Source: an uncultured Gemmatimonadales bacterium (GTDB taxonomy: Bacteria; Gemmatimonadota; Gemmatimonadetes; Gemmatimonadales; Gemmatimonadaceae). Taken from it: a DNA stretch of 64,000 nucleotides. Below, piece by piece: positions 10,686 to 64,000 of this stretch; positions within the stretch are counted from its first letter, which is position 1, and the number at the start of each line of letters is the position of its first letter. The position numbers were made by a program, and so were the translations under genes. Under the pieces are notes generated by a model. It searched no databases. It was not told where the DNA came from and saw only the letters and a program-made list of their open reading frames with translations. The DNA lies in the NCBI GenBank assembly GCA_963701965.1, contig OY969695.1:2496001-2560000 (forward strand), read 5' to 3'.

Positions 10686-13349
10686 GTGGACGGTCGCGAC
10701 GTGACATCTTCCGCACCGCACCCTTACCTCGCGACACGGTCGACACCAGCCGAGGGTGAGGTGCAGCAGGTGACGGGGCGATTTGCCGCTTTGGCGGATC
10801 AAGTCGCCGAAAGCGAGACGCTCGCCCAGATCGCCCGGCAGATCGCGGGCGTCGTGAGCGATCGCGGCGCGACGTTCGATCTGCTGGCGAACGGTGCGGT
10901 CTCGCTCTTGGGTGCCGATGGCGCGATCGTCGCCGTGCGGGGCGACGATGCGCGCCATGTGCGCGTGGAGGCCGCGGCCGGCTCGCTCATCCCGATGCTC
11001 GGGTTCTCCGCGCTGCTCGCGGGTACGTTGGCCGAGGAATCCCTGGGCTGCTTCCACCCGCTCGTGCTGAACGACACGACGGGCGATCCGCGCGTCGAGG
11101 CGCATTTCCTGTCGGCGTTTCATCCGCGGCAGGTCGTGGTCGCGCCCATGGTGGTCGCCGAGGCGCCGCGTGGATTCCTGCTCGCCCTCAACAGCGCGAA
11201 AGGCTATTTCGCGCCGCCGGACGGCGCGCTGCTGCAGCGGCTCGCCGATCACGGCGCCATCGCGATCCGACACGCCGAGCTTCTGGCTCGCACCGAAGCC
11301 GCCGTCGAGGAAGCGCGCCGGCTCGCGGACATCGTGCAGGAGATCAACCAGTCGCTCGAGCTGGAGCGCGTCGTCAAGCTCCTGGCCCGGCATGCGACCG
11401 GGCTGTTCGCGGCGCGCGGCGCCCGCGTGTCGGTGCTCGATGGCGAGCAGTTGATCACTACCGCCACGTTCGGCGATGCCGTGGACCGCATCGGCGCGGT
11501 GTTCGACCTGTCCACCGTGTTCGCCGGGGAGGCCATTCGCCAGCGCCGCGGGGTGGCGACCAGCGATCTCCGTCCCTACGCCGATCAGTGGGCGCGGACC
11601 GGGCGCGGGGCCTCGGTCGAGGAAGGACGGGCCAACGGCATGGCGGCGCCCTTGCTCGTCGGCGGGCGCGTCATCGGGGCCGTCACCGTGTTCGGGCGCG
11701 AGCAGGGGGATTTCAGCGACCATGACGCCGCGACCTTGCATGCGTTGGCCAATCACGCCGCGGTGGCGATCGAAAACTCGCGCCTCTACCGGGCCGCGGC
11801 CTATACGGCCCGGCACGCCAGTATTCTCGCCGCCACGGGGCGGGCGCTGGCCAACAGCGTGACGTCCGAGGCGGTCTACGCCGGTATCGCCGAAGTCGTC
11901 TACGACTCGCTGGGCGCCAACGGCTACACGGTCATCCTCGCCGATAACGAGACCGGACACGTCGAGCTCTCCCACGCGGAAGGGCCCGGATCCGAGCAAG
12001 TGACGATGCCCGTCGAGCACTTCTGGGCGAGCCCGGCCGGGACGGTCCTCAGGACCGGCGCTCCCGTGTATTTCCCGGACTTTGGGGACATGGACACCGC
12101 ATGGGCGCCCAGCGGATTTTCCGTCGCCAAGTACCGGGCGCGGTCGCTGGCGATCCTGCCGCTGATCAGCGAGGGACGCCCCCGCGGGACCCTCTCGATT
12201 CGCTTCGCCGCCGCCAAGAAGTTCGAAGAGCATGAGCGGCGCTTGCTGGAGGATTTCGGGACGCAGTTCGCCACGGCCGTCCGCAACGCGCAACTCGCCG
12301 CCGCCGAGCAGCGGCATCGCGAGCGCGAACGGATGTTGGCGACCGCGCTGGCGACCATGGAGCACCCGGTGTTCGTGCTCAACCCCAATGCCAAGATCCG
12401 GTACGCGAACCCCGCCGCGGCCCGCGAGTACGGGTACACGGTGGAGGAGCTGACCGCTTTGCCGCTCGACCGGCTCCTGGCCGTGCACTCCGATGGCATC
12501 GAAGGACCCGATCAGGTCCATCGCCGGCGCGATGGCACCGAGTTCCCGGCCACGGCGACCCTGAGCCAGATTCGCGATGACGCGGGCGCCGTGGTGGGGC
12601 AGGTGGTGTCCGTGCGCAATACGACGGAGGAGCGGAAGCTCGCCGAAGCAATGCACCAGACCGAAAAACTGGCGGCGCTGGGCGAGCTGGTGGCTGGTGT
12701 CGCCCACGAGCTGAACAATCCGCTGACGGGCATTTCGACATTCGCGCAGCTGTTGCTCGAAGAGGAGCTCACCGAGGACCAGCTGGAGTCCGTCCGGACG
12801 ATCAAGCGCGAGTCCGACCGCGCCGTTGCCGTGATCCGCGACCTGCTGGTCTTCTCGCGCAAGACCGGGCCCCGGCACGGGCCGGTGGATCTCCGGGCCT
12901 TGATCCAACAGACCGTCCGCCTTCGGAGTTATGCCTTACAGTCGGCCGGCGTCACACTGCAGACGGAGCTCGACGCCGATCTGCCGACGGTCCCAGGCGA
13001 CGACCGCAAGCTGCAACAGGTGCTGATGAACATGATGGTGAATGCCGAGTACGCCATGTCCAAGACCGAAGTCCGGACGCTGACCGTCCGGGCGTTGACC
13101 GGCACGGAGCACGTCACGCTCGAGATCGCCGATACGGGCATCGGGATGAGTCCGGATGTCGTCAAGCACGTCTTCGAGCCGTTCTACACCACGAAACCGG
13201 TCGGTGTGGGGACGGGACTCGGCCTTTCTGTCAGCTATGGAATCATCCAGGCGCACGGCGGCACGATCGACGTCAAGAGCGCCCCGGGCGCTGGCACGAC
13301 GTTTCGGATCGCGCTGCCGCTCGCCGCTACCGCGGCATCGTTCGAATGA
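10686..13349 (+). CDS. Cytoplasmic GAF-GAF-GAF-PAS histidine kinase
   Basis: Three GAF-like repeats, a short PAS domain, H-box AGVAHELNNPL and HATPase boxes (QVLMN, DTGIG, FYTTK, GTGLGL). Confidence 0.92.
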   Translation: MDGRDVTSSAPHPYLATRSTPAEGEVQQVTGRFAALADQVAESETLAQIARQIAGVVSDRGATFDLLANGAVSLLGADGAIVAVRGDDARHVRVEAAAGSLIPMLGFSALLAGTLAEESLGCFHPLVLNDTTGDPRVEAHFLSAFHPRQVVVAPMVVAEAPRGFLLALNSAKGYFAPPDGALLQRLADHGAIAIRHAELLARTEAAVEEARRLADIVQEINQSLELERVVKLLARHATGLFAARGARVSVLDGEQLITTATFGDAVDRIGAVFDLSTVFAGEAIRQRRGVATSDLRPYADQWARTGRGASVEEGRANGMAAPLLVGGRVIGAVTVFGREQGDFSDHDAATLHALANHAAVAIENSRLYRAAAYTARHASILAATGRALANSVTSEAVYAGIAEVVYDSLGANGYTVILADNETGHVELSHAEGPGSEQVTMPVEHFWASPAGTVLRTGAPVYFPDFGDMDTAWAPSGFSVAKYRARSLAILPLISEGRPRGTLSIRFAAAKKFEEHERRLLEDFGTQFATAVRNAQLAAAEQRHRERERMLATALATMEHPVFVLNPNAKIRYANPAAAREYGYTVEELTALPLDRLLAVHSDGIEGPDQVHRRRDGTEFPATATLSQIRDDAGAVVGQVVSVRNTTEERKLAEAMHQTEKLAALGELVAGVAHELNNPLTGISTFAQLLLEEELTEDQLESVRTIKRESDRAVAVIRDLLVFSRKTGPRHGPVDLRALIQQTVRLRSYALQSAGVTLQTELDADLPTVPGDDRKLQQVLMNMMVNAEYAMSKTEVRTLTVRALTGTEHVTLEIADTGIGMSPDVVKHVFEPFYTTKPVGVGTGLGLSVSYGIIQAHGGTIDVKSAPGAGTTFRIALPLAATAASFE

Positions 13350-57984: not shown

Positions 57985-58200
57985 TTACCGGCCGCCAGCC
58001 TTCACGACGTTCTCAGCCGCGGGGCCTTTCTGGCCCTGCACGATGTCAAACTCCACCACATCACCCTCGGCCAACGACTTGAAGCCGTTGCCCTGAATGG
58101 CGCTGTAGTGAACGAAGCAGTCCTTCTGACCATTGTCCGGCGTGATGAAACCGAAACCCTTTGCGTCGTTGAACCACTTCACTTTCCCGGTGGTACGCAT
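57985..58200 (-). CDS. Cold-shock protein (CspA family)
   Basis: [30 protein letters not shown]. Confidence 0.97.
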
Positions 58201-58387
58201 TCCTACTCCTGAAAGAAAATTTGTCTAGGGAGCGGAACGTGCCGTACCCCGACAAAGCATTATGACGCGGGACCTAAGCCCCCCGCGACTGGACCGGCCG
58301 CATCCCCGTCGAATTCTGGACGGATTCTTGGCTTATAGCGCGCTAATATAGCGGAGCCAAGTGGTTCGGGCAAGAGTCAATGATTAA

Positions 58388-63002: not shown

Positions 63003-63167
63003 CGTACCTACCGGCAGCGCACCGGCATCCCCGCGTCCCTCGTGGTGGTGGGCTTGGCCGCGAACGATTTCACGATCGCGGATGCGGACGATCCCGCGAT
63101 GCTCGACGTCGTGGGTCTCGATACCACCACGCCGCAGATGATCGCGTCGTTCATGACCGACGGCTGA
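63003..63167 (+). pseudogene. C-terminal remnant of a Ro60/TROVE (Rsr-like) protein
   Basis: RTYRQRTGIPASLVVVGLAANDFTIADADDPAMLDVVGLDTTTPQMIASF resembles the Ro60 vWA C-terminus. No start codon or N-terminal part. Confidence 0.75.
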
Positions 63168-63250
63168 CAACGAAAGAGCCCCGGGAGAAATTCCCCGGGG
63201 CTCTTGTCGTTCGTATGGCGGTGGAACCGCCACGGCCGTCTCGCAAGCAC
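63168..63250 (-). ncRNA. Putative sRNA B, antisense to the neighbouring tRNA
   Basis: TTGACG-N16-TAAAAT promoter (63283-63256). 5' end is 17/18 complementary to the tRNA anticodon arm. Terminator at 63174-63205. Confidence 0.6.
63174..63205. terminator. Bidirectional terminator hairpin
   Basis: AAGAGCCCCGGG/CCCGGGGCTCTT stem. Confidence 0.8.
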
Positions 63251-63321
63251 TTTCAATTTTATATGATTCCACGCCAGCGTCAACGCTGCGGATTACCGAA
63301 TTCTACGATTGCCAACTAGCG

Positions 63322-63405
63322 TACCCGGGACGGGATTCGAACCCGCACGCCCTTGCGGGCAGCCGCTTGCGAGACGGCTGTGTCTACCAGTTCCACCACC
63401 CGGGC
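63322..63405 (-). tRNA. tRNA with tRNA-Leu body and CGC (Ala) anticodon; CCA not encoded
   Basis: Full cloverleaf: GCCCGGG/CCCGGGT+A73, D arm GTGGAACTGGTAGACAC, GCCGT-CTCGCAA-GCGGC, variable arm GCCC-GCAA-GGGC, GCGGG-TTCGAAT-CCCGT. Confidence 0.9.
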
Positions 63406-63481
63406 ACCGTTCACGCTCGGCGAAAACTGGATGGTGCGACACAGATTCATCGCAAGTGCTGCGCGACTAGCTGGCGGCGAA

Positions 63482-63631
63482 CAATGTATCGACCCGATGC
63501 GATTCGCGCATCGTTGTATTTCGCACATCATCATGACCAACAACGAAAGAGCCCCGAGGGACATCCCCCGGGGCTCCACAGCAGTCTCGCACGCACCCGC
63601 AATGTATCGGCACGATGCGATTCGCGCATCG
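63482..63631 (-). promoter_or_regulatory. Duplicated 32-bp promoter/operator (63482-63513 and 63600-63631)
   Basis: 30/32 identical. Each contains the palindrome CGATGCG-N5-CGCATCG and a TACATT -10-like box on the minus strand. Confidence 0.7.
63541..63596 (-). ncRNA. Putative sRNA A, antisense to the tRNA anticodon arm
   Basis: Begins just after TACATT. GCGTGCGAGACTGCTGTG is 16/18 complementary to the tRNA. Terminator GAGCCCCG..CGGGGCTC-TTTCGTTG is homologous to that of sRNA B. Confidence 0.55.
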
Positions 63632-63645
63632 GTGAATGTCACACG

Positions 63646-64000
63646 TCAGCGCGCGGCGACCTCGGCCCCGCGGCGTTCGACATCGTCCGTGGCGAGGCGC
63701 AGCTCGGCGAGGATCGGTGCGGTGAATCCGACCTCGGCGAGGCGATCGCTGAGCTCCCGGTAGTAGCGAATCGTGCCTTCGCGCCCGCGCAACGTCCGCG
63801 TCCAGATGGTCTCGGGATAGTCGGTGCGCCGGAGATCGGCGAGGATGGTGCCGATGCTGTGCAGCGCGTCGGCCGCGCCGACCCAGCGCGAGGCGTCAGT
63901 CGCGATGGCCAGTCGCGTGACGACATCGCGCTTGCGCTCATCGGGCGAGAGCTCGACACCGTTGTCATCCGTCCGCCGCTCCGTCACGGCCAGCGCGATC
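63646..64000 (-). CDS. HD-domain protein, small alarmone hydrolase/Mesh1-like (5' end outside window)
   Basis: VTE...ERK...AADALHS..IL.D....W.R...GREGTIRYY pattern. Confidence 0.65.
   Translation of the reverse strand, partial: IALAVTERRTDDNGVELSPDERKRDVVTRLAIATDASRWVGAADALHSIGTILADLRRTDYPETIWTRTLRGREGTIRYYRELSDRLAEVGFTAPILAELRLATDDVERRGAEVAAR

Follow-up and report, generated by a model that had tools for sequence, protein, structure and literature searches.

A 64,000-nt stretch of contig OY969695.1 from an uncultured Gemmatimonadales bacterium (GCA_963701965.1) was analysed (the window, to which all coordinates refer). We report that its minus strand carries, at 63168-63631, a tRNA gene with a leucine-type body and a foreign CGC anticodon, with a downstream segment that is complementary to the anticodon arm of this tRNA and has promoter- and terminator-like sites of its own. 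Loci of this design recur patchily and in multiple copies in Gemmatimonadota, and tRNA and segment have evolved in compensation, so that where the anticodon changes the segment changes with it. We propose, with a probability of about 60%, that the sequence encodes an RNA-only toxin-antitoxin module, in which a leucine-charged miscoding tRNA would be the toxin and an antisense RNA containing the segment, RNA B, its blocker. The co-variation of anticodon and segment stands even if the toxicity fails.

A leucine-type tRNA with a foreign anticodon

ARAGORN calls a tRNA with a CGC anticodon at 63321-63405 and labels it Ala, and the Rfam tRNA model scores it at 50.7 bits, with a 7-bp acceptor stem, a 5-bp T stem and a long variable arm. 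When the anticodon arm was removed and the remaining body was compared with the genome's own Leu, Ser, Tyr, Sec, Ala and Val tRNAs, the six best matches were the six tRNA-Leu genes of the genome. Together with the presence of A73, A15:U48 and A20a and the lack of G3:U70, this bears out the leucine body under a CGC anticodon that a first-pass annotation of the same sequence had described; the CCA end is unencoded. For leucyl-tRNA synthetase (LeuRS) of E. coli the determinants are A73, A15-U48, G18G19 and A20a, and the anticodon is not needed (PMC9976931); G3:U70 is an identity feature of tRNA-Ala (PMC7609411). From these determinants we infer that the window tRNA is probably charged with leucine.

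The 61 intact members of the family described below have the same features. With the anticodon arm removed their best isotype is Leu in 61/61, all 61 have A73, which lies outside the search pattern, U48 is found in 58, the variable arm measures 13-17 nt, and G3:U70, expected of tRNA-Ala, the annotation that many of the anticodons would give, is found in 0/61. A14, A15, G18G19 and A20a were enforced by the search pattern, so that independent evidence comes only from A73, U48, the length of the variable arm and the lack of G3:U70. One of the 61 (L230) has an encoded CCA end, and many host tRNAs are likewise without it.

Anticodons with A34 are rare in bacteria outside tRNA-Arg. They recur among the Leu-body tRNAs collected here (AGC in L041, L053, L057 and L191; ACC in L180, L222, L256 and L272; ATC in L181, L261 and L332), and likewise in the tRNA-ProX genes discussed below.

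The genome carries a normal tRNA set, tRNA-Ala(CGC) included. Of the 11 codons scored in it, GCG is the most frequent (66 per 1000); the first-pass annotation had called GCG codons very common in the window. In recA, 11 GCG codons gave 44 aligned positions in four genomes of other families, of which 30 hold Ala and none Leu. Codon reassignment was therefore rejected: the miscoding tRNA would be an extra tRNA in a cell with an unchanged code. Reassignment is one of three readings, with a neutral duplication artefact and a Y-RNA-like partner of Ro60, that we regard as largely refuted and, even taken together, as scarcely tenable; the other two are weighed below where their evidence appears.

A family of loci in Gemmatimonadota

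The source genome holds three such tRNAs, in the window, at C1:2795461 (anticodon GAC) and at C1:2804589 (CGC), and downstream of each lies a segment that is complementary to the arm of that tRNA. With a strict pattern, 28 places were found in the phylum, spread over 20 of 401 genomes, the source genome among them, and four of five genomes of the same genus carry two or three such tRNAs. The named records with the same module are Gemmatimonadota, from which the phylum of the genome was deduced. Spread is patchy, with up to three copies per genome and variable neighbours; a tree of the tRNA bodies (67 columns) is too weakly resolved for counting origins.

The pooled set comprises 67 distinct Gemmatimonadota members, 61 of them scored as intact. 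Fourteen anticodons occur (CGC 27, CAC 11, GAC 8, GGC 7, AGC 3, CTC 2, TGG 2, and TTC, GGT, ACC, TGC, AGG, GGA and GTC once each). The first-pass annotation had proposed insertion of Leu at Ala codons; Ala anticodons are indeed the commonest (38/67), but the scope is wider, with Val in 19/67 and Glu, Asp, Gly, Thr, Ser and Pro also present. Eighteen named Gemmatimonadota loci beyond the first extraction, mostly T-loop variants, broken copies and duplicates, were scored in the fuller set. Five tRNAs (L201, L210, L222, L235 and L253) are broken by a T-arm insertion or loss of the 3' half, and L201, L210 and L222 still keep the antisense segment.

The downstream segment follows the anticodon

Among the 65 members with at least 110 nt of downstream flank (two of the 67 have less), 60 carry a matching segment with the exact codon opposite the anticodon. 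The five exceptions are two of the broken tRNAs (L235 and L253), two TGG tRNAs of another layout (L376 and L380) and L373, and true tRNA-Leu genes are without a matching segment. Forty members with at least 120 nt downstream, which have 39 distinct arms, were scored against one another in a 40 x 40 matrix of ungapped pairing. The mean score was 16.7 for cognate pairs (n=40) and 8.2 (sd 1.9) for non-cognate ones, the cognate segment ranked first in 37 of 40 rows, and the exact codon stood opposite the anticodon in 40/40. Forty-three true tRNA-Leu controls, one of which (L026) came from an unpublished genome (G012), reached a mean of 7.4 and a maximum of 12.5.

Fourteen disjoint close pairs, chosen to limit relatedness, differ at 59 arm positions; 46 of these differences are compensated in the segment, eight keep pairing by wobble and five break it, and the anticodon changes are compensated in 12 of 12. 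These compensatory changes exclude neutral duplication. At one orthologous site, beside a shared gene with a TonB domain that is 85-96% identical between genomes, the anticodons are CAC, CTC, CGC and CGC; three of these loci have a matching arm segment, and in the fourth (L373:5774-5859, from G003) the segment matches the variable arm (14 nt) rather than the anticodon arm. Six anticodon-loop positions pair in 100% of cases; on the 3' side, pairing declines two bases inside the stem. The check set in advance, that homologous loci should carry the segment and that it should vary with the anticodon, thus came out in favour of the first-pass annotation.

In 51 of 59 members a promoter-like site (shuffle p<=0.1) comes after the tRNA, compared with 2 of 29 true tRNA-Leu genes. 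Its -10 box precedes the codon by 10-11 nt in 41 of 56 members, which means that the antisense RNA would begin opposite the anticodon loop, and a terminator follows the segment in 40 of 56. Same-strand matches upstream of the tRNA that score at least 12 are found in only 5 of 59 members, leader matches included, so that an upstream antisense unit such as RNA A of the window (below) is not a family feature. The two antisense RNAs of the first-pass annotation thus fared differently: the RNA B type is family-wide, and the RNA A type is peculiar to the window locus.

Alternatively, the tRNA might never decode and might act as a sponge or decoy that titrates an anticodon nuclease, a synthetase or a toxic RNA B, so that it would be the tRNA that neutralises the small RNA. 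Some allo-tRNAs near toxin-antitoxin genes failed to translate in E. coli (PMC5389517), protein toxin-antitoxin genes adjoin about ten of our loci, and relatives in other phyla have broken acceptor stems. A decoy is nevertheless quite unlikely, since all stems and the Leu determinants are retained in 61/67 members and the antisense sequence changes freely along with the arm, so that hardly any constant sequence remains for a different target. Each of the genome's four antisense segments pairs best with its own tRNA among 62 ARAGORN calls (for one of them the margin over a dubious call is only 0.1 kcal/mol), and pairing with the host tRNA-Ala(CGC) is poor (for RNA B, -19.1 versus -36.0), on which grounds the host tRNA-Ala was rejected as the antisense target. 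RNAs of the RNA B type have a start codon in only 18 of 56 members and a Shine-Dalgarno sequence in only 12 of 56, neither of them conserved, and a CreT-like mini-mRNA was rejected on this ground.

Parts of the window locus

The units of the module lie on the minus strand where the first-pass annotation had placed them. The three RNAs are predictions from sequence, and the features are as follows.

63600-63648, minus strand: predicted promoter region of RNA A, one copy of a 49-nt repeat with 86% identity to 63482-63530.
63629-63624 (weak -35), 63606-63601 (-10, TACATT) and 63613-63631 (19-nt palindrome), minus strand: details of the RNA A promoter, read from the sequence.
63541-63594, minus strand: RNA A, a predicted second antisense RNA of about 54 nt, with an arm-complementary segment and then an intrinsic terminator.
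63594-63577, minus strand: RNA A segment complementary to the anticodon arm (16/18 nt).
63577-63548, minus strand: terminator stem of RNA A, found by the consensus scan.
63482-63530, minus strand: predicted weak promoter of the tRNA precursor, the other copy of the repeat, read from the sequence and the family alignment.
63511-63506 (-35-like) and 63488-63483 (-10, TACATT), minus strand: boxes of the precursor promoter, absent from the consensus-scan output.
63406-63476, minus strand: leader of about 70 nt, from folding and conserved blocks in the family alignment.
63438-63456, minus strand: leader stretch complementary to the anticodon arm (74% over 19 nt).
63322-63405, minus strand: tRNA with leucine body and CGC anticodon at 63371-63369 (ARAGORN, Rfam, identity comparison).
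63311-63321, minus strand: 3' trailer, from tRNA position 74, complementary to the 5' end of the leader (63466-63475).
63256-63283, minus strand: near-consensus sigma70-type promoter of RNA B (TTGACG, 16 nt, TAAAAT).
63168-63249, minus strand: RNA B, a predicted antisense RNA of about 82 nt, from complementarity, folding and family co-variation.
63248-63231, minus strand: 5'-terminal RNA B segment complementary to the anticodon arm (17/18 nt).
63233-63215, minus strand: small hairpin of RNA B, from folding.
63205-63171, minus strand: terminator of RNA B, from folding and the repeat, with a weak U tract.
63003-63167, plus strand: ro60 remnant of about the last 50 codons, a neighbour outside the module (Pfam vWA_Ro60, E 1.9e-16).

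The complementarity of RNA A and RNA B to the anticodon arm, the strong sigma70 promoter of RNA B and the homologous terminators, all put forward in the first-pass annotation, were found again: the RNA B promoter scores 10/12 in the consensus scan (one found, 0.2 expected), and the terminators form a 37-nt repeat pair (63167-63203 and 63540-63576, 89% identical). The scan missed the terminator of RNA B, with its weak U tract, and the two upstream promoters. RNA B folds with a z-score of -4.86 relative to shuffled sequences and the leader alone with +1.23; Rfam finds the tRNA and a weak terminator-like match at the locus, and nothing else.

The operator that had been thought to be shared did not hold up. 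The 19-nt palindrome occurs in perfect form only twice in the 5.1 Mb genome, both times in the window locus; k-mer enrichment gave no motif common to the whole family, and the palindrome motif was not seen by eye upstream of two lexA-like genes or recA. Operator or SOS control was accordingly rejected. RNA A has the usual family spacing, with its codon 10 nt past the -10 box, and would be driven by the duplicated promoter of the precursor; of the 62 ARAGORN calls, the window tRNA forms the best duplex with it (-40.6 kcal/mol). It is likely an extra or orphan antitoxin, which a local duplication with deletion would have left behind.

Predicted leader pairing and a possible read-through transcript

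For the precursor of the window tRNA a rod-like fold is possible in which the cloverleaf is concealed, the middle of the leader pairing with the anticodon loop and D arm and its 5' end with the trailer. Over 59 members, the mean probability of pairing between the anticodon and its own leader is 0.41, compared with 0.15 for swapped leaders, 0.09 for shuffled ones and 0.16 for 35 true tRNA-Leu genes. A self-masking leader, as first suggested, gains modest backing from these folds, and two results tell against it: in the window the rod is only 3 kcal/mol more stable than the cloverleaf-constrained fold, and the match to the loop barely tracks the anticodon, six of seven loop bases being matched by 33/59 own leaders, 42% of leaders from members with other anticodons and 12/35 controls. 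Leader masking of the tRNA is thus weakly suggested by modelling. The pairing of leader and trailer from position 74 is kept in both the masked and the cloverleaf-constrained fold.

A terminator between tRNA and segment is found in 0/56 members, so that a transcript reading through could be controlled by the segment in cis as well, and in folds of this transcript the anticodon pairs with the segment with a probability above 0.5 in 49/56. The same observations would suit control in cis only, in which the segment would be no more than the 3'-terminal part of the precursor, folded onto the anticodon arm, and a separate antisense RNA would not exist. We hold this to be very unlikely in view of the promoter-like site just before the segment and its spacing; in addition, RNA A lies upstream of the tRNA with its own terminator and cannot act in cis, and the convergent layouts of three Patescibacteria loci (below) can act only in trans. 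The trans-acting RNA B of the first-pass annotation is thus supported by its promoter-like site and spacing, but folding back in cis is open to it as well, and the folds suggest that the segment may act both ways.

Genomic neighbours

Within 900 nt of the Gemmatimonadota loci, 97 of 137 open reading frames (ORFs) were scanned, and no conserved partner protein was found among them. Genes of protein toxin-antitoxin type adjoin about ten loci and DNA-repair genes several, counts for which there is no background rate. Cas genes were not found among the scanned neighbours, nor a CRISPR match by Rfam at the window locus.

The ro60 remnant abuts the module in the window directly after an alcohol dehydrogenase gene and is 66% identical to the end of the full Ro60 of L379, from a genome of the same genus, where (L379:2995-5343) a GGA module lies on the opposite strand between the full ro60 and a short rtcB piece. 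Bacterial Y RNAs are encoded with ro60 on the same strand and have ends that pair with each other, and the pairing of the leader's 5' end with the trailer resembles such ends. The Y-RNA-like reading introduced above was rejected all the same: the genome has no TROVE domain, the full Ro60 is found at one locus among the 97 neighbours and on the opposite strand, and Rfam gave no Y RNA match. The presence of ro60 beside the window module and L379 looks like a shared insertion site.

Elsewhere in the window, a cold-shock protein gene (57985-58314, minus strand) shows a partial match to the cspA thermoregulator under the Rfam gathering score, and an ARAGORN tRNA-His call (10819-10894, plus strand) without the usual D- and T-loop sequences is likely spurious.

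Related loci beyond Gemmatimonadota

A scan across GTDB returned at least 120 matching stretches, 80 of them named, and those listed include Actinomycetota, Alpha- and Gammaproteobacteria, Planctomycetota, Chloroflexota, Bacteroidota, Bacillota, Cyanobacteria, Acidobacteria and Patescibacteria; some of the matches are due to chance or to intron-containing tRNAs. Sixty-four intact A73 members lie outside the Gemmatimonadota list, a set that includes unlabelled and viral loci, some of them Gemmatimonadota-like. Among the 64, 15 have a tandem antisense match, 18 have a promoter-like site on the reverse strand that is directed into the tRNA (at p<=0.1 about 6 would be expected; controls 1/29), and 14 have a reverse-strand terminator just past it (controls 1/29). 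The Planctomycetota loci L220 and L223 have the tandem layout, the Patescibacteria loci L180, L256 and L272 a convergent copy of the arm, and the Proteobacteria loci L187, L202, L234 and L246 a promoter as well as a terminator on the reverse strand. L234, with the overlapping layout, belongs to Noviluteimonas lactosilytica, which is in culture. From metagenomes, a scan yielded 28 stretches, among them tandem loci L516, L519, L528, L532, L534 and L536 and the convergent L539.

In a search of 72,556 plasmids nine records matched the tRNA body only, and the three examined are ordinary tRNA-Leu genes. A first viral scan was dominated by phage tRNAs for Asn and Ser. Among the matches listed in a second one, for G36 anticodons, most are His or Gln tRNAs, 12 are long-arm TGG tRNAs and one is a GCG tRNA with A73, and none of the long-arm TGG or GCG tRNAs with A73 has a tandem antisense. 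Phage tRNAs with a Leu-type D arm and a long variable arm are found in viral contigs (for example L059-L061, L398, L432, L445 and L460), with GTT (Asn) anticodons and G73 or with TGG (Pro) anticodons and A73, the latter in 12 distinct forms among the matches listed.

Several other groups were noted in these scans. Outside the phylum 63 of 111 neighbouring ORFs were scanned, and an IS110 transposase, an integrase and a SLATT gene were each found at one locus and DDE transposases at four. The DDE transposase genes adjoin Leu-body tRNAs whose anticodon is that of Asp (ATC) or Glu (TTC), at L181, L190, L211 and L322 (records of Actinomycetota and one viral contig); these are possibly insertion sequences that carry a miscoding tRNA; no antisense signature is found there apart from a reverse terminator at L322. 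In another layout (L527, L533, L537, L538, L540, L541 and L376; also L193 and L339) a small ORF, frequently for a Lys/Arg-rich peptide of 38-50 aa, comes no more than about 40 nt after a Leu-body tRNA (TGC, TGG or TCC), and the tandem antisense is absent; five of these ORFs were scanned and had no Pfam match, and the ORF could encode a protein partner. A third group, in Bacillota, Bacteroidota and others (L198, L200, L206, L215, L251, L254, L255 and L262), has a Leu-type D arm, a Gly or Ala anticodon, a broken acceptor stem (5/7 pairs) and no antisense signature; as the form recurs across genomes, it is probably not the outcome of simple decay. Finally, L548, on a Variovorax megaplasmid (NZ_LR594690.1), has 15 tRNA genes within 3 kb.

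We lean, by a little, towards regarding the loci as an undescribed and widespread class, selfish or defensive, found in many bacterial phyla and in viral contigs in tandem, convergent and overlapping layouts. A tRNA-Leu derivative that corrupts the code would be its toxin and a small RNA complementary to the anticodon its antitoxin; it would ride insertion sequences in some Actinomycetota, and its tRNAs would be mis-annotated as ordinary tRNA-Ala, Val, Asp, Glu or Gly.

Comparison with known systems

The tRNA-ProX genes (tRNA-ProA, ProN and ProT) of Streptomyces and Kitasatospora (PMC10404621, PMC11415595) are natural miscoding tRNA genes, toxic in E. coli (PMC10404621), and resemble the present family in placing foreign anticodons, Ala AGC included, on one body. 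They differ in having a proline body and a full or truncated ProRSx in a conserved operon, whereas the present tRNAs have a leucine body, no conserved protein partner, a co-varying antisense segment and a distribution over many phyla; no proSx or murG neighbour is found among the 97 ORFs. Allo-tRNAs (Mukai et al., PMC5389517; review PMC7609411) share the long arm, the diverse non-cognate anticodons and action as missense suppressors, and sit near toxin-antitoxin genes and transposon ORFs. Their acceptor branch is 8/4 or 9/3 and their identity Ser or Ala, unlike the 7/5 cloverleaf, A73, lack of G3:U70 and Leu isotype (61/61) seen here. The word 'antisense' occurs 0 times in the main texts of these four papers as available; Leu-type cases might be listed in the supplements of PMC5389517.

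Loci of toxin-antitoxin type I, among them hok/Sok and tisB/IstR-1 (PMC4147584), likewise have a short antisense RNA with its own promoter, occur in several layouts, which the convergent and overlapping arrangements in other phyla resemble, and keep the toxin transcript folded inactive until it is processed. Their toxin is a small protein and their target an mRNA, whereas the target here would be a tRNA anticodon arm. No conserved toxin ORF or neighbour protein is found in the family, and the short cognate antisense RNA with its own promoter and terminator is present at the level of sequence features. In type VIII systems (CreTA, SdsR-RyeA; PMC10767807, PMC8501985) toxin and antitoxin are both RNA, adjacent and protein-free, and the loci described here are such an adjacent RNA pair without a protein, as defined in the available text of PMC10767807. 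CreT sequesters a tRNA and CreA represses through CRISPR-Cas (PMC10767807), whereas the putative toxin here is itself a tRNA that would corrupt decoding. CreTA is further marked by an antitoxin derived from a CRISPR repeat, by linkage to cas genes and by a mini-mRNA toxin with rare codons. There is no CRISPR match, no cas gene among the neighbours scanned, few mini-mRNA signals and a target codon that is common, not rare. SdsR, for its part, is a base-pairing small RNA. The module would fit the type VIII definition if toxicity were shown, and is unrelated to CreTA or SdsR-RyeA.

The first-pass annotation knew of no described system with this architecture, and in the literature covered, which leaves aside subscription journals and supplements, no description of such a module was found either; the available text of PMC13092985 held nothing relevant.

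Proposed mechanism and its implications

The mechanism that we propose, from transcription, masking and processing through leucylation, miscoding and harm to antisense neutralisation, would run as follows. A weak upstream promoter would give an RNA of leader, tRNA and trailer that runs on through RNA B, and this read-through form would be kept inactive by the pairing of leader with trailer and by the RNA B segment folding back on the anticodon arm, until slow processing and CCA addition release the cloverleaf. The strong promoter would give RNA B, whose 5' end would begin opposite the anticodon loop, pair there and invade the 5' stem and D arm, so that the tRNA would be blocked or destroyed. 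If RNA B ran short, through loss of the locus, transcription shut-off, stress or phage, the stable Leu-tRNA(CGC) would become active and mistranslate GCG, the commonest codon scored, and the cell would be slowed or killed. Fast divergence of the arms would prevent sister modules from neutralising one another. Since a dedicated silencer tracks every anticodon change, decoding by the tRNA must be something that is held down.

Several observations weigh against a toxin. The anticodons found most often are those for Ala and Val, substitution of Leu for Val is conservative, and tRNA-ProA, which exchanges Ala for Pro, is only mildly toxic (PMC10404621); with such mild substitutions a tolerated, regulated effector fits as well as a toxin. 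When the anticodon was left free in the pattern, C36 was found in 36 of 41 listed non-Leu matches, a bias partly set by the search patterns, 20 of the 37 genomes in this test having been chosen beforehand by the earlier pattern. Valyl-tRNA synthetase might compete for the members with Val anticodons. The TGG members L376 and L380 are intact and without a matching segment, about half of the intact members outside the Gemmatimonadota set show no antisense signature in our tests, and in the plasmid search the module was not found. Neither an integrase nor a transposase is among the 97 neighbours scanned in Gemmatimonadota, and some sites are inherited within a genus.

The same molecules and mechanism could accordingly serve a useful mistranslation, with the tRNA released under stress, Ala- or Val-to-Leu exchange at a tolerated level and the antisense RNA as a rheostat. 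The prevalence of mild substitutions (57/67 Ala or Val), the inheritance of some sites within a genus and the DNA-repair genes beside several loci would suit this, as would the raised carbenicillin tolerance of E. coli with tRNA-ProA and ProN (PMC10404621). We consider it unlikely, though deserving of serious weight: the switching among Ala, Val and Glu at one orthologous site and the hypervariable arms fit turnover of specificity better, the strict pattern is absent from 381 of 401 genomes, and no operator in common was found.

If the toxin-antitoxin reading is true, bacteria possess protein-free modules of poison and antidote directed at the genetic code, and dedicated antisense RNAs have tRNAs as well as mRNAs for targets. 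Encoded mistranslation would then be far wider than the cases of Streptomyces tRNA-ProX and allo-tRNAs, and switchable, and annotation by anticodon would be hiding such tRNA genes. Cognate pairs of tRNA and antisense RNA, which come in many natural specificities, could serve in laboratory strains as orthogonal switches for codon-specific mistranslation, and the long-standing question of whether encoded mistranslation is kept for benefit or as a weapon becomes directly testable.

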